A program made the position numbers and the translations under genes. The notes beneath the pieces are model-generated. The model made no database searches, was not told the origin of the DNA, and worked only from the letters and a program-made list of their open reading frames with translations. Below, one piece after another: positions 21,674 to 34,035 of a stretch of DNA of 64,000 nucleotides. Source of the stretch: Escherichia phage vB_EcoM_SA35RD; the sequence record OL960577.1, one strand, 5' to 3'. Each line of letters starts with the position of its first letter. Within the stretch, counting starts at the first letter, position 1.

Positions 21674-22675
21674 TTATTTCAGTAAAGTTACTTCAGAGAT
21701 TTCCTCCCAACCATCTTTATCAGTTGAAATAAAATCTGCTACATAAAGAGCGGTACGTAATGATACATTGCGAAGACGAGATACATTAGCCTTCATCCAG
21801 GACAATGCTTTATACGTTTCTGCATCAGTCAGACCACGTTTCTGCATCATGTCAGTAGATAATATTACATCTTCAACTCGAACCATAATCTCTTCATTAG
21901 AGTGTACTCCAAGGTCGAGATACACTGAGCGAGATACTAAAGCTTGAAGGTGTGGAGCAAGTTTCGAACCGCGTTCTAACTCTTTATCGATATCAACGTT
22001 TGTAATGAAAACGATAGTACCTTCAAACTCAAATTCTTTATCAATACCCTTATCATCGAGATAAGATGACGCAGTGCTCCAACAAACTTTGCGTTTATCA
22101 CCGGTATCTAATGCTGCTTTAAGAAGGTTCAGGATGTCCATATCTGAGAATACGTCAACGTCATCGATTAAGAGAACGCTGTCTGCATCACGGTTGAGCC
22201 AAAGTTGTTCGTAAAGGCCAATACCAGAGATTTTACCATTAATGCTTTTGTATTTGATGAAACCATTATCATTAGCATTATTAAGTGCTTTATCCAGAGA
22301 ATACGTCTTACCAATACCGGCTGCACCTGAAATAATGAGTGAACGAATTTTGCCATCGATAATGCCATTCGTCATCATGTTCATTACTTTAAAGCGTTTG
22401 TTGATACGAGTTTTCATATCTTCAGTGCTTTCAACAACTGCAACTGGTGATGTCTCAACTCCTTCCATTACGATGTCTGATTTGAAGACCCATACTCCAC
22501 GTTCAGAACCATCAATCATAACGAAAATTTTACCGTCACCTAAGTGGGAACATTCAGGATTAAGCTTTGCTGGGAACCAGGTCTTTGTGGCAACATAAGA
22601 ACCAGAGATTTCGTTATTACGATAGATACCTTTTTTGATTTGAACGTTGAACATTTTATTCTCCAATTTACTCAT
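21674..22675 (-). CDS. P-loop ATPase (Walker A/B), function unknown
   Basis: 333 aa; Walker A SGAAGIGKT, Walker B LLIDDVD. Confidence 0.6.
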   Translation of the reverse strand: MSKLENKMFNVQIKKGIYRNNEISGSYVATKTWFPAKLNPECSHLGDGKIFVMIDGSERGVWVFKSDIVMEGVETSPVAVVESTEDMKTRINKRFKVMNMMTNGIIDGKIRSLIISGAAGIGKTYSLDKALNNANDNGFIKYKSINGKISGIGLYEQLWLNRDADSVLLIDDVDVFSDMDILNLLKAALDTGDKRKVCWSTASSYLDDKGIDKEFEFEGTIVFITNVDIDKELERGSKLAPHLQALVSRSVYLDLGVHSNEEIMVRVEDVILSTDMMQKRGLTDAETYKALSWMKANVSRLRNVSLRTALYVADFISTDKDGWEEISEVTLLK

Positions 22676-28734: not shown

Positions 28735-29273
28735 TCTTTTATTTCCAGTAGTTTATTTGATTTAAGGTAATTAGCCTTTTCTAGGACTTCAGAAGCATAT
28801 TTACTTCCAGCACTTGTCTTCCATCCCGCATTATATGAGGATATAGCTTTTCTTATATCCCCGTTATGTATATTTAACCAATAAGAAAATTCGATATAAG
28901 CCCATCTGGCTGAATTAGACCGCTTAGATAGCATTTTCTTAATTTGGGCATCAGTCATATTATAACCAAGCTGGTTAATTCTTGCCCTCATTGTTGGTAG
29001 ATAATTTTGGAACATTCCATACGCATGGTGACCTTTCTTATCTTTAAGATTAATACCGGCAGATGATTCTTGCCATAGTATTGCGGCCATTATGTATCCA
29101 AGTCCTTTCTTATGCATATTTTCATGCGTTTTAAATTTTCCGTCCTTAGAAAACTGTTCCCCAAACTGATAAGCATAATTCAAGTTATCGAGTTGGACAT
29201 TACTAAAAGTATGCTCGGAGCTATGTGCTGATAATGAAAGAGCAAATAGACCAGCGAGTAGTGCTTTTCTCAT
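28731..29273 (-). CDS. secreted lytic-transglycosylase-like protein (180 aa)
   Basis: Signal peptide; WQESSAG...YGMFQ resembles SLT-domain ES...GLMQ catalytic motif. Confidence 0.5.
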   Translation of the reverse strand: MRKALLAGLFALSLSAHSSEHTFSNVQLDNLNYAYQFGEQFSKDGKFKTHENMHKKGLGYIMAAILWQESSAGINLKDKKGHHAYGMFQNYLPTMRARINQLGYNMTDAQIKKMLSKRSNSARWAYIEFSYWLNIHNGDIRKAISSYNAGWKTSAGSKYASEVLEKANYLKSNKLLEIKE

Positions 29274-29281
29274 GTTTACCT

Positions 29282-29740
29282 CTAGATTTTAATCACTGCT
29301 TTAGAAGCTTTTCCTGGTAGTCGTTTACTGTTAATAATAGCCATTCTACATTGAAGAGTCTTCATTTTGAATGTCGGATTTTCGCGACAAACTGTAAGTC
29401 CTAACCAAAGATTTCCGTCAGTTATTTCTAAACGGCCTGGACGATACTCGACACCTTCGACAAAATCTTCATCAACATCTGGACGTGCCGGCATTGATAA
29501 AAATTCTGCAACTTCTTTAACGTGATTTTTTACTTTATGAAATAATTCAAAAACGTAATTCTCATCTATTTCTCTCTGGATGGCACGATCTAAGAGATGT
29601 TGAGAATACTTGATATGAAAGCCTGGTAGTCCAAGAGACTTTGCAGCATCTTTTATACCGGCATTTATTTTGCGGAACTCCGTTTCAAAGATTCGACGGA
29701 GTTTATTACGACGGATAAAAACGTCTGAATTGATAGTCAT
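29282..29740 (-). CDS. regB: RegB endoribonuclease
   Basis: 152 aa; MTINSDVFIRRNKLRR...YSQHLLDRAIQREIDE...RLPGKASKAVIK matches T4 RegB. Confidence 0.85.
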   Translation of the reverse strand: MTINSDVFIRRNKLRRIFETEFRKINAGIKDAAKSLGLPGFHIKYSQHLLDRAIQREIDENYVFELFHKVKNHVKEVAEFLSMPARPDVDEDFVEGVEYRPGRLEITDGNLWLGLTVCRENPTFKMKTLQCRMAIINSKRLPGKASKAVIKI

Positions 29741-29768
29741 TTTGATTTCTCCTCTAGTTGACAGGTCT

Positions 29769-29797
29769 ATAGTAACACAACTAGAGGAGAAGTAAAC
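29769..29797 (-). promoter_or_regulatory. early promoter cassette (-35 GTTTAC, 17 nt, -10 TACTAT) upstream of regB
   Basis: Read directly. Confidence 0.5.
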
Positions 29798-29801
29798 TAC
29801 T

Positions 29802-30017
29802 TTATTGATAAAATGGAGTTAAAGCCCAAGATTCTTTAGATACTATATTGGCGAAATGCCTCATCTCTTCGATTTGGCGACGACGTTGGTCAGCATAGTC
29901 TTCTTCGCCTTCTTCCTTACAATCTTCAAGGTCTTCTTCAAGATACTTTAAGTATTCACTACAAATTTTGTTGACCTTTTCTTGGAAGTCCAATAACCCA
30001 GTAATAGTAGAAGCCAT
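29802..30017 (-). CDS. hypothetical acidic protein (about 71 aa)
   Basis: Track ORF 29802..30059 trimmed. Confidence 0.4.
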   Translation of the reverse strand: MASTITGLLDFQEKVNKICSEYLKYLEEDLEDCKEEGEEDYADQRRRQIEEMRHFANIVSKESWALTPFYQ

Positions 30018-30283
30018 TAGTATTTTTCCTCGGGTCGAAATACTGCACGACATGCCCACATGCTGGCTTCTTTTAGATGTTGCTTAGCATACTTAAGAGC
30101 CTGCACTGCATCCATATCTTCTTTGGTTTGTTGCTCTGTTTCATTTTCTTTCAAGATATATGCTTCTTCAATCAGAGCATCAAACATCAATCCAAGACGG
30201 ACTTCTGCATCTTTAATAGCGTTCACTTTACTGATTTTATCATCGGTATGCGGTTTGTAGCCTTTGATGTCTTCAATCGACAT
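30017..30283 (-). CDS. hypothetical protein (about 88 aa)
   Basis: Track ORF 30017..30451 trimmed to MSIEDIKGYK. Confidence 0.4.
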   Translation of the reverse strand: MSIEDIKGYKPHTDDKISKVNAIKDAEVRLGLMFDALIEEAYILKENETEQQTKEDMDAVQALKYAKQHLKEASMWACRAVFRPEEKY

Positions 30284-30497
30284 AAGGAATTTCCTCATCG
30301 GTGGCAAGGTCATATTCGACCAATTGGATAGGCTCATTAATACCATATCCACGTACAGTGATATCAGTTGTCGGATAGTTTCCAGTAATATCACCCATTC
30401 TAAATGCTTCAGTGAATGATTGCTCGCCTGAGCAACTAAACCAGGCGGCAAAACATTTTAAAACATCTTCAGACCCGTCTATAATCAATTTAGCCAT
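30273..30497 (-). CDS. hypothetical protein (74 aa)
   Basis: Track ORF. Confidence 0.45.
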   Translation of the reverse strand: MAKLIIDGSEDVLKCFAAWFSCSGEQSFTEAFRMGDITGNYPTTDITVRGYGINEPIQLVEYDLATDEEIPYVD

Positions 30498-30859
30498 TAT
30501 AGACTCTCAGTAAAGGTACGAGCGATAACGTCGCGCTGCTGTTCTGGAGTCAGAGAGTTAAAGCGAACTGCATAACCGGATACACGAATGGTCAGCTGAG
30601 GATATTTTTCCGGATGCTTAACTGCATCTTCCAGAGTTTCACGACGCAGAACGTTAACGTTCAGGTGTTGACCACCTTCAATTTTAACTTTAGGTTGATG
30701 TTCAATTTCAATTTCACGGGCGTTAAGACCGTAGAAAATTTCCGGGTCTACAATAGCGTCTTCTTTAAAAGTCTTAGAGACAATAATCCGGGCTTGAGTA
30801 CAGTCTTCAAAATAAATAGTGCCTTTGTGTGTGCCTTCAAGAATTTGATATGCTTTCAT
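30497..30859 (-). CDS. autonomous glycyl-radical cofactor (GrcA/YfiD-like)
   Basis: C-terminal [60 protein letters not shown] is the PFL-type glycyl radical domain. Confidence 0.8.
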
Positions 30860-30865
30860 ATAACC

Positions 30866-31174
30866 TCAATTAGAAAATAAATTTATCCAAGTTTTTTCTT
30901 TAATCAAAAATGGGTCGGAATTAAACGCCATTAAACTTTGAGTGATTAATCCCTTAAATGGCCCATCAATAAATTCCATTTTGAAATGCGGAATACTAGT
31001 CATCAACCGTGCATTAGGAGCAGTACAAAGAACCTGCTGCCCTGCGAACGGACCTTTAGTCAAACGATATCGTTTAGGTTTAAAATGGTAAATCTCGTAA
31101 TTTTCTACAAGGGCCCTTTTATTGCATACTGGACTGTTATAACAATACTCAAAAACTTCAATAGTGGTCATCAT
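30866..31174 (-). CDS. hypothetical protein (102 aa)
   Basis: Track ORF; stop overlaps upstream gene start. Confidence 0.45.
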   Translation of the reverse strand: MMTTIEVFEYCYNSPVCNKRALVENYEIYHFKPKRYRLTKGPFAGQQVLCTAPNARLMTSIPHFKMEFIDGPFKGLITQSLMAFNSDPFLIKEKTWINLFSN

Positions 31175-31710
31175 TGCATTCCAATCACAAAAAATTGAGG
31201 ACGAGCATTACTGCCGATGCAATATTTGCTTTTGCAGCAGTGCTGTACTGTTTTAATGTGGACATTGTAAATCTTATCCATATCAGGAGCTTTAATAGGC
31301 TCGTCAATTATATACAGAATACGAGAAAGCGTTAATCCACGGAATTTAGAACCTTCATTGCCAATAAAACTACGAACAGAATCAGTAAATAAACGGAATC
31401 GAATATCGTCGCTAGAATAACGAGAAAATTCTTTTTCAATGTTGCCAGCAGAAATTTTAGCATAAGCTGAAGTATTAGAAAGAACAATAACCGTTCCACC
31501 ATCATACAGCCAATTAGCAGCAAAGTTAGTCACAGCAATTGATTTACCTGATTGTCGGCCGCCGTCTAAACGAAGTGTACAGTACTGCTTGAGTACGTCT
31601 TCAAATGGTGGGGCATAACCGTTCTTACAAATTTCTTCTACTCTAGCATCAGAATGGTGTGTAAAAGCATTCATCAGGGATAGATAAGGTCCAGTTAAAA
31701 ATGTTCTCAT
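31171..31710 (-). CDS. small P-loop NTPase-like protein (179 aa)
   Basis: Walker A DGGRQSGKS, Walker B-like ILYIIDEP. Confidence 0.5.
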   Translation of the reverse strand: MRTFLTGPYLSLMNAFTHHSDARVEEICKNGYAPPFEDVLKQYCTLRLDGGRQSGKSIAVTNFAANWLYDGGTVIVLSNTSAYAKISAGNIEKEFSRYSSDDIRFRLFTDSVRSFIGNEGSKFRGLTLSRILYIIDEPIKAPDMDKIYNVHIKTVQHCCKSKYCIGSNARPQFFVIGMQ

Positions 31711-31823
31711 TTAGTTTCTCTTTTAGGTTGGGCCATTCCGTGGCGCATGAATTGTCCATTTCTGTATTTACCCCTCCAAGTAATTATGAATATACTATCA
31801 CAATTCTAGGAGAAAGTAAACTG

Positions 31824-32126
31824 TTATTTACCTTTAATTACTTTAGCTGCTTCGATAGCCGCTTGCTGAAGGTCATCCATAGACATACCGAATTTAGAAG
31901 CAAAGTTATCAATTTTCTTTTCGACAGCATTCAAAGGCTTGGCCTGTTTACCTTCATTAGCGCCAGGAAGAGCGAGAATACGCTCTTTGTCAATATAAAG
32001 GCTTACAAGTTTCTTACGGTCTTTATCGGACAAATCATGAAATGAATGGGCCTTTTTATTTATAGCGGCTTCTAATTTACCTGCACTCACTCGAGCTTCA
32101 GTAATAAATTCTTGATATGTTTTCAT
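31824..32126 (-). CDS. internal (capsid-targeted) protein, IPII-like
   Basis: N-terminal capsid targeting sequence MKTYQEFITE; 100 aa. Confidence 0.65.
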   Translation of the reverse strand: MKTYQEFITEARVSAGKLEAAINKKAHSFHDLSDKDRKKLVSLYIDKERILALPGANEGKQAKPLNAVEKKIDNFASKFGMSMDDLQQAAIEAAKVIKGK

Positions 32127-32151
32127 TTTGTTCCTATTGTTTTAATTTATG

Positions 32152-32466
32152 TTATTCTTTAGGGAAGTTTTTAGAGTATGCATCATAAAGTTTATTACCA
32201 ATACGGCGGAAGACTTTAGCTGCAAAACGGTTTTCAGGGTTTTTAATCATGATTTGCATCATGTAAGTTCCTGCATCCGAAAGAGCTTCTTCATAGTACC
32301 CATTAATTTCTTTAAGAGTCCTACGTTTACCACCAGGACCATCAACAGTAATTTTCCATTTACCTGTAGAAGTGCGGCTCGGTGGCTCAACTTGTTCAAT
32401 CCAAATATAACCACCTTCAACGCGTTGGTTGGCGGATTCTGCAATAAATTCTTTATACGTTTTCAT
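32152..32466 (-). CDS. internal (capsid-targeted) protein
   Basis: N-terminal MKTYKEFIAE; 104 aa. Confidence 0.6.
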   Translation of the reverse strand: MKTYKEFIAESANQRVEGGYIWIEQVEPPSRTSTGKWKITVDGPGGKRRTLKEINGYYEEALSDAGTYMMQIMIKNPENRFAAKVFRRIGNKLYDAYSKNFPKE

Positions 32467-32529
32467 TTTTGTTTCCTTGTTTGTTTTGATAGAGTAATTA
32501 TACCATATTAATACTTAAGCGTAAACAAT

Positions 32530-32790
32530 TTAAGCTTTACCGCCAGAAATAATTCCGAAGTTGTTAAAATCGTATCCAATATCGTCAACATCTACTTTAG
32601 GACTTGCTGCAACATAAGCAATTTCACTACGTTTTGCATAGGTGTTGATTTCTTTACCATCGCCACCTAAGAAAGAATACCCATTACGTTTTAATGAGCC
32701 AAAGTCTTCCGCATCACCAATGAAAGCTTTAACTTTAAATTTGGGGTCTTTGGCATCTGATTCAGCGATAAATTCTTGATACATTTTCAT
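32530..32790 (-). CDS. internal (capsid-targeted) protein
   Basis: N-terminal MKMYQEFIAE; 86 aa. Confidence 0.6.
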   Translation of the reverse strand: MKMYQEFIAESDAKDPKFKVKAFIGDAEDFGSLKRNGYSFLGGDGKEINTYAKRSEIAYVAASPKVDVDDIGYDFNNFGIISGGKA

Positions 32791-32796
32791 TTTTCC

Positions 32797-33210
32797 TTAG
32801 TAAATTGATTTACCATAGTATTTGTACCAAGTCGGACGTTGAGCAATTTTTTCATCTAAGCGTGCTTGACTTATCGCAATGGACGCTTCGGACGGGTCAT
32901 AATTATTACGAAATTCGGCAGGGATGTCGGAAATATCCTGGACTGTCGTGTCCTTGATTTTGAAACCACGTTTCAAGCATTCAGCGATTAGCTCGATTTG
33001 ACGTAAACGTAAAAATTCGAGTTTGTCGTAAAAGAATGTTACGTGACCTGTGCCTAAGATAAATGTTGGAGAGATTTTAAAATCCTTTACACGTTTACCG
33101 TTTTGAACATGTTTACGGACTGCACCAAATACGCGTGGTAATTCACGATACTCAGCCATAAGATGTTGGTCGGACAGTTCAGAAACAAGTGTTAAATTGA
33201 TACGAGTCAT
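32797..33210 (-). CDS. denV: endonuclease V (pyrimidine-dimer DNA glycosylase)
   Basis: [35 protein letters not shown] matches T4 DenV; start set to MTRIN. Confidence 0.9.
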
Positions 33211-33237
33211 AATTTCCTCCAAGTAGTTGATGAATGT

Positions 33238-33267
33238 ATAGTATCAAAACCCTTGGAGGAAGTAAAC
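33238..33267 (-). promoter_or_regulatory. early promoter cassette (-35 GTTTAC, -10 TACTAT) upstream of denV
   Basis: Read directly. Confidence 0.45.
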
Positions 33268-33268
33268 A

Positions 33269-33541
33269 CTATTTTTCTGAAGCGCCTGAAATATATTTTT
33301 CAAGACGTTGTTTCATCAGCGAGCCGTTCTTAGCGATTTCTTCTGGTTTATCGCACATACGCAACAAGGCTTCAAGCTTAGCGATATCGCTGGTACGTTC
33401 AAATTTGCGAGTATCTATCTTACTAGCAAGTTCAGAAATACGTGCTAATAGACTTTCAGCTTCAACCAAAGCTGCACCTAGCTTAGTTGCAAATGTGTCA
33501 GTAGCTTCGTTAAGAATAGATTCTGATAAAAATTCACTATA
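33269..33541 (-). CDS. internal (capsid-targeted) protein
   Basis: Track ORF 33269..33565; start set to [10 protein letters not shown]. Confidence 0.6.
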   Translation of the reverse strand, partial: YSEFLSESILNEATDTFATKLGAALVEAESLLARISELASKIDTRKFERTSDIAKLEALLRMCDKPEEIAKNGSLMKQRLEKYISGASEK

Positions 33542-33546
33542 TGTTT

Positions 33547-34035
33547 TCATATATACGCTTTCCAAGTTCCTGTTTTAAATGTTGAGATTACGCGTTTCGC
33601 GCGATTAGGTGTCTGACGATACCATTTAGATTGAGCTAGATTTACTGCCGCTTCATCCCAACGTTTCTGTTTAAGCATACGAAGAGAATTAGTAAAACCG
33701 GCGACTCCTGCTACACCCATTTGGAAGACCATATTGACCAATGCACACCGACGAACTGCATCTAAAGAATCATATACCGGTTTAAGTTTAGCATTACCCA
33801 AGATTCCGCGAACGGCTTTATCAACGTCTTCATTAAATAGCTTTTCAGCCTCATCAAGGGTAATTGTACCGTTGCATTTACGACCGATCATTCTGTCAAG
33901 TTCAGCTTTAGCTACGGCTAAAGACGGGTTCTTTGTTACCAAGTGGCCTATGCCAATCGTCCAAAAGCCTTCAGTGTCTTTGTATAAAGTCAGTCTAAGA
34001 CCTTCGTCATTACGAAGCATTTCAAATATATTCAT
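33547..34035 (-). CDS. e: lysozyme (endolysin) e
   Basis: [32 protein letters not shown] matches T4 lysozyme; catalytic Glu/Asp region present. Confidence 0.9.

Follow-up and report, generated by a model that had tools for sequence, protein, structure and literature searches.

Vs.8 of Escherichia phage vB_EcoM_SA35RD, a stand-alone terminase-like P-loop ATPase of T-even phages, and its likely partner Vs.7

Two proteins of 179 and 102 residues, encoded side by side in Escherichia phage vB_EcoM_SA35RD, are the Mosigvirus orthologues of the products of the T4 early genes vs.8 and vs.7, respectively. The analysis covers a window of 64,000 nucleotides (sequence record OL960577.1), in which both reading frames were found where the initial annotation had placed them, with the motifs DGGRQSGKS and ILYIIDEP in the longer one. 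That annotation had taken them for a two-gene unit of unknown function. The orphan status has to be given up: the 179-residue protein has its orthologue in T4 Vs.8, which has been annotated for decades, and the pair are rediscovered annotated genes of T-even phages and no new element. Our preferred reading, to which we assign a probability of about 0.6, is that Vs.8 is an ATP-using early accessory protein that works with Vs.7 as its partner, in host takeover or counter-defence.

The window belongs to a T-even phage of the genus Mosigvirus, approximately 97% identical to JS09, and the 1.8 kb around the two genes is 95-98% identical to Mosigvirus phages such as JS09, ST0 and AV117. At the protein level, BLASTP gives 89% identity to T4 Vs.8 over all 179 residues (E 1e-124), and the profile phrog_1488 matches residues 3-179 (3e-78). 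T4 Vs.8 (UniProt P13318, Y06K_BPT4; phrog_1488) has the same motifs and the same place upstream of vs.7 and vs.6. The 102-residue protein is 63% identical to T4 Vs.7 (E 5e-49) and matches phrog_2049 (1.1e-48), and its homologues carry the Pfam domain PF26834 (Phage_T4_Y06J). T4 Vs.7 (UniProt P13317, Y06J_BPT4; PF26834; phrog_2049) is the orthologue and its gene has the same ATGA overlap with vs.8; compared with it, the protein in the window lacks 7 residues within its variable N-terminal part.

The order of genes in the window is tk, tk.x, tk.4 (Macro), vs, vs.1, regB, vs.3, vs.4, vs.5, vs.6 (GrcA-like), vs.7, vs.8, ip genes, denV, ip, e and nudE, which agrees with T4 and JS09 and places the pair in the early cluster from denV/ip to regB. 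The GrcA-like neighbour that had been named initially is identified as such because it matches Pfam Gly_radical (1.7e-18). In T4, denV adjoins vs.8, whereas in the window three internal-protein genes lie between the two. These encode proteins of 100, 104 and 86 residues that each start MKTY[QK]EFI, and T4 has none there. Internal-protein cassettes are variable, and there are anti-restriction functions among them, such as IPI*. It should be added that in some phages (e.g. mogra, BW-1 and APTC-EC-2A) vs.7 and vs.8 carry the label "endoribonuclease" or "RegB domain-containing protein". We reject this label because Pfam REGB_T4 matches neither protein; the true regB matches it at 4.5e-69, and the label seems to have spilled over from this nearby gene during annotation. 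The features discussed here are listed in Table 1.

Table 1. Features of the vs.8/vs.7 region, in window coordinates.
Feature	Position	Strand	Description
vs.8 orthologue	31171..31710	minus	179 aa; stand-alone ASCE P-loop ATPase resembling terminase ATPase
vs.7 orthologue	30866..31174	minus	102 aa; N-terminal two-helix region, then SH3-like beta-barrel (model)
ATGA shared by vs.8 stop and vs.7 start	31171..31174	minus	Possible termination-reinitiation
Predicted early promoter of vs.8	31792..31821	minus	GTTTACT, 17-nt spacer, TGnTAGTAT; 8/12 consensus
vs.8 leader with small uORFs	31729..31773	minus	45 nt, conserved; nearly identical in window, JS09 and T4
uORF overlapping vs.8 start	31707..31748	minus	TGA overlaps vs.8 ATG
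Walker A / P-loop DGGRQSGKS	31540..31566	minus	Residues 49-57; D49 to K56 invariant in 19 homologues
Candidate arginine fingers R113, R124 (with G125)	31336..31374	minus	Invariant columns, ahead of Walker B strand
Walker B ILYIIDEP	31297..31320	minus	Residues 131-138, putative catalytic Glu137; E137 and P138 invariant, D136 at least 90%
Vs.7 conserved core	30905..31078	minus	Residues ~33-90; Y36, G41-P42-F43, T51, F68, G75, S80, D85
GrcA-like ORF (vs.6)	30497..30859		Pfam Gly_radical
vs.4 homologue	30017..30283	minus	Pfam Acb2_Tad1_hairpin
vs.3 (TadIV-1) homologue	29802..30017	minus	Short form, ~71 aa
regB	29282..29740		Pfam REGB_T4
Three internal-protein-like genes	31824..32790	minus	100, 104 and 86 aa

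The Walker A pattern by itself is weak evidence for an ATPase, because translating the window in all six frames yields the bare pattern G....GK[ST] five times, compared with 1.3 +/- 1.1 in shuffled sequence. The four other matches lie on the minus strand at 22327, 5975, 37781 and 62881 (GAAGIGKT, GKNGGGKS, GTKVVGKT and GPSTYGKS, respectively), and some of them are probably known T4 ATPases. For Vs.8, the clear conclusion is that the P-loop is real, because it is invariant in 19 homologues, is followed by a Walker B and glutamate at the right spacing, and sits in a confidently predicted RecA-like fold. The initial call of a P-loop NTPase, which was to fall if the Walker residues were not conserved in homologues, is upheld, because they are invariant. 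The alignment of these 19 homologues reaches down to 36% identity, and the invariant columns include D49-G-G-R-Q-S-G-K56, R113, R124-G125, E137-P138, K146, Y148 and the C-terminal G177 and Q179. Remoter representatives, at 31-36% identity, retain the Walker A lysine and an acidic pair at Walker B.

The AlphaFold2 model of Vs.8 has a mean pLDDT of 82.5 and a pTM of 0.83, and has a long N-terminal helix followed by a five-stranded alpha/beta core. In this core the P-loop comes after strand 1, between strand E45-48 and helix H53-69, and the Walker B motif is on strand E131-137, with its D-E pair at the end of strand 4. The C-terminus at residue 179 comes directly after strand 5. The fold is confidently predicted to be RecA-like. 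It had been remarked initially that the protein is too small for most characterised ATPase families. The size is explained by its consisting of one ASCE/RecA-like domain, which corresponds to the core ATPase subdomain of large terminases of the T4 type or to the first domain of SF2 helicases.

Between these two families, the sequence favours terminase as the nearest relative. The large terminase profile phrog_2 matches 18 of 19 members of the Vs.8 family (best 1e-6) and Pfam Terminase_6N weakly matches 16 of the 19 (best 6.8e-5), every one of these terminase matches being below the curated thresholds; the Terminase_6N score for the protein in the window is 13.5 bits, compared with a cut-off of 22. 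Aligned with T4 gp17 by hhalign, the family profile gives an E-value of 0.002 over 100 columns, with Walker A and Walker B both in register. The alignment pairs GGRQSGKT with LSRQLGKT (gp17 residues 160-167), so that the P-loop arginine of Vs.8 has a counterpart in the SRQLGKT of gp17, and it pairs RG..L.RiLyIIDEP with RGNSFAMIYIDEC. In this second block the Walker B of Vs.8 lies on the IYIDE of gp17, and R124-G125 on the R-G that precedes it. Pfam DEAD gives a marginal match in only one of the 19 members, and Helicase_C no meaningful match. Vs.8 also lacks the second RecA domain of SF2 helicases (Mfd, DDX20, RIG-I RecA1) and their motifs beyond I and II. The N-terminal ATPase domain of phi29 gp16 (PDB 5hd9) has no sequence similarity to Vs.8, and gp16, unlike Vs.8, has a C-terminal domain and acts at the prohead together with pRNA. 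When PDB sequences were searched with a profile of the Vs.8 family, nothing scored below E 0.1. Neither NCBIfam nor PADLOC has a match for Vs.8 or Vs.7, and the Pfam set searched, which does not include PF26834, gave no significant family for either beyond the weak P-loop/terminase matches.

Vs.8 differs from a gp17-type large terminase (Terminase_6N; PDB 2o0h) in that the lid subdomain and the RNase H-like nuclease domain are absent from its approximately 180 residues. It differs from TerL also in its genetic setting, vs.8 being early and not late, with no adjoining genes for a small terminase or portal. The terminase likeness was reached here independently, but most of its novelty is gone, because a May 2026 preprint describes the homology of T4 vs.8 to the terminase ATPase (bioRxiv 10.64898/2026.04.30.721860).

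Among 1.84 billion cluster representatives, searched exhaustively with HMMER, only 34 are relatives of Vs.8, all of approximately 170-185 residues or fragments. By tblastn, vs.8 is present in 1008 phage records, always as a single copy, these being T4-like phages of enterobacteria with genomes of approximately 160-175 kb; vs.7 is present in 932 records. As far as sequence searches reach, the family is confined to T4-like phages. A Foldseek search of viral models (BFVD) first returns uncharacterised look-alikes of 140-175 residues, and then encapsidation proteins and terminases. The look-alikes come from T4-like phages of Proteus, Aeromonas, Vibrio and Stenotrophomonas and from the jumbo phages 201phi2-1, Dickeya JA29 and Erwinia Desertfox. 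Going by these predicted structures, the stand-alone mini-ATPase may have a far wider distribution than sequence searches indicate. A related family is phrog_2586.

Compared with T4, vs.8 of phage T2 (LC348380, 1201-1736) has lost 2 bp at each of two places, which splits it into three frames, and this copy looks like a pseudogene. Shortened Vs.8 proteins of approximately 66-133 residues are found in SV76, Lutter and several metagenomic contigs. The broken T2 copy and the shortened copies in several isolates support the dispensability of vs.8, and suggest that it has been lost repeatedly, being dispensable and possibly visible to host immunity.

The early promoter predicted for vs.8 (Table 1) was not listed by a simple promoter scan, because only 8 of the 12 consensus positions match; in T4, the "promoter of vs.8" has been used for driving expression in E. 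coli (PMC13243611). Time-resolved omics of T4 places both Vs.7 and Vs.8 in the class of early RNA and early protein; for vs.3, vs.4 and vs.6 the RNA is classed as early and the protein as middle (PMC9697503 supplements). Downstream of the predicted promoter is the conserved leader, upstream of which the DNA is unrelated, being ipII in the window and a denV remnant plus a hairpin in T4 and JS09. The leader may be a translational control element; an Rfam search of 29000-34000, which includes it, gave no match. The uORF that overlaps the start of vs.8 encodes MRHGMAQPKRETK and stops there, whereas in T4 its ATG is in frame with vs.8 and gives a 195-residue form.

We take 31710 as the conserved start of vs.8, because the frame upstream is interrupted by stop codons and every homologue has the same start, the N-terminus M-[RK]-T/x-F/Y-L-T being common to all those aligned. 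A T4 annotation of 219 residues was considered as the conserved form of Vs.8 and rejected, because its 40-residue N-terminal extension is not conserved and, in the window, falls in another frame or runs into stop codons.

In its structural model, Vs.7 is an SH3-like barrel. Its conserved core was defined from an alignment of 31 homologues, and the pattern Y-x-x-x-x-G-P-F ... G-L ... S is present in the protein in the window. The first 35 residues vary, and many homologues, with a length of only 78-88 residues, do not have them. The protein contains a G-P-F-K-G motif that is suggestive of KOW, with no Pfam match that backs KOW membership.

The initial annotation had proposed translational coupling of a two-gene unit on the basis of the overlap between the two frames. 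The overlap itself is real (the junction reads GGA ATG CAA TGA TG), but it says little, because about one third of the same-strand junctions in the window overlap (32 of 99, 17 of them as ATGA), and it is thus generic for the genome. The T4 neighbourhood of the two genes is similar, with 12 of 27 junctions overlapping. A better line of evidence for a link, as far as genome comparison goes, is conserved adjacency, which is found in nine sampled lineages. In eight of these, vs.8 is followed at once by vs.7 with an ATGA or TAATG junction: Tequatrovirus (T4), Mosigvirus (JS09), Karamvirus, Gaprivervirus, Moonvirus, a Klebsiella T4-like phage and two metagenomic lineages. In the ninth, also metagenomic (L003), a 43-residue ORF comes between them. 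The junction is of this type in T4, L004, L005 and L011-L014.

The most natural alternative is that the two genes are functionally independent, and that overlap and adjacency reflect nothing but the compact and collinear early clusters of T-even phages. In its favour are the many overlapping junctions in the window, the ORF that separates the pair in L003, and two of the remotest vs.8 homologues, which have a vs.5 homologue downstream, in L009 with the same 4-nt overlap. In addition, Vs.7 diverges much faster than Vs.8 (63% compared with 89% identity to T4), and no fusion of the two was found among the homologues, including those from the 1.84 billion representatives; one candidate fusion of 246 residues (P0037) proved to be only upstream read-through. 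Against independence, the adjacency persists across genera at 36-45% Vs.8 identity even though vs.6 or the ip genes are lost or swapped around it, and vs.7 and vs.8 share one early-protein class, unlike vs.3, vs.4 and vs.6. We therefore consider independence unlikely. The two genes are nevertheless not an obligate unit, because two distant phages carry vs.8 without vs.7. Judging from the conserved gene order, Vs.7 is most likely a partner or adaptor of Vs.8 in most lineages.

The partnership of an early ATPase with Vs.7 can be set out as a mechanism. In it, Vs.8 is a shortened paralogue of the core ATPase subdomain of gp17, without the lid and nuclease domains. It has kept the arginine-containing P-loop, the aspartate of Walker B, the catalytic glutamate and two invariant arginines. 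The vs.8 gene would be transcribed directly after infection from its own early promoter, and Vs.7 would be translated by coupling from the overlapping ATGA junction and act together with Vs.8. From its motifs, Vs.8 is predicted to bind and hydrolyse ATP. It is probably oligomeric, with an arginine finger supplied in trans: the invariant R113 and R124 may include such a finger, and oligomeric action as in terminase rings would follow from this. Trans-acting arginine fingers are documented in the terminase ATPases of phi29, P74-26 and D6E (PMC7617512).

The pair would then be a dispensable early accessory for host takeover or counter-defence, encoded in the vs.3-vs.8 block together with Acb2 (vs.4) and TadIV-1 (vs.3). 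We infer this role from the neighbouring genes. The vs.4 homologue, which overlaps vs.5 by 11 nt, matches Pfam Acb2_Tad1_hairpin (9.6e-18), and this match marks it as a cyclic-oligonucleotide sponge (Acb2). The T4 vs.3 product is TadIV-1, a sponge of the type IV Thoeris signal, and the vs.8-vs.3 fragment of T4 is clonable; when T4 Vs.3 to Vs.8 were expressed singly, only Vs.3 had anti-Thoeris activity, Vs.4-Vs.8 having none against type IV (PMC13243611). Short TadIV-1 forms that were tested there did not inhibit type IV Thoeris (PMC13243611). The phage studied here may be sensitive to this system, because its own vs.3 is of the short form.

A connection between Vs.8 itself and immunity comes from the same preprint that reported its terminase homology. 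In that work, an in silico screen of T4 proteins against the terminase sensor EcAvs2 picked vs.8, termed "an uncharacterized ATPase-like protein", and an anti-defence role was suggested (bioRxiv 10.64898/2026.04.30.721860). Co-expression of T4 vs.8 with EcAvs2 was toxic, and an AF3 model placed Vs.8 in the EcAvs2 pocket with ATP bridging the two (bioRxiv 10.64898/2026.04.30.721860). The toxicity data are for the T4 protein, to which the protein in the window is 89% identical. Vs.8 resembles the non-terminase Avs2 activators Ksap1 and Ksap2, in that all are small lineage-restricted phage proteins with a terminase-ATPase-like sheet that trigger Avs2 on co-expression; unlike them, Vs.8 has detectable terminase sequence homology and intact Walker motifs (bioRxiv 10.64898/2026.04.30.721860). 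Vs.8 may thus be a liability to the phage, recognised by Avs2 because it has kept the shape of a terminase ATPase, and the breakage of vs.8 would also fit selection against an Avs2-visible protein. The literature contains no report of an anti-defence activity for either Vs.8 or Vs.7.

A more specific form of the proposal is that Vs.8 and Vs.7 make up an ATP-driven counter-defence module derived from a duplicated packaging-motor ATPase, recognition by Avs2 being a guard-type response to it. Here Vs.7, as a dedicated partner, would direct Vs.8 to an immune component of the host, or would hide the terminase-like surface from Avs2-type sensors. We regard this version as distinctly unlikely as it stands.

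It is also conceivable that Vs.8 is not an enzyme at all and instead mimics the terminase ATPase, as a decoy that occupies or mis-times the sensors (Avs1-3, Upx); the Walker residues would then be retained only because bound ATP forms part of the recognised surface. Such a role would fit a protein that is terminase-like in sequence and fold, is made early when terminase is late, is encoded in a block rich in anti-defence genes, and is modelled by AF3 in the pocket of EcAvs2, where ATP forms a bridge. However, the toxicity of co-expression implies that Vs.8 activates the sensor and does not block it, the invariant Glu137, R113 and R124 are unnecessary for mere ATP binding, and the pseudogene in T2 fits a liability equally well. 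On balance, a decoy is improbable.

Finally, it is very improbable that Vs.8 is an accessory of packaging or other DNA transactions, be it a regulator of gp17, a component of mixed rings with gp17 or a DNA-end loader, with Vs.7 as a nucleic-acid-binding SH3/KOW-like subunit.

An ATP-using early accessory that acts with Vs.7 remains our preferred reading. Vs.8 is among the few conserved T4 early proteins that have an obvious enzymatic core and yet no known role; two of its neighbours have recently been shown to be sponges of immune signals, and Vs.8 has just been reported to trip Avs2. The role of a stripped-down and duplicated packaging-motor ATPase in the first minutes of infection would inform our view of host takeover or counter-defence by T-even phages, and modulation of Vs.8 by Vs.7, if true, would help to explain why a phage should hold on to a protein visible to the immune system of its host.
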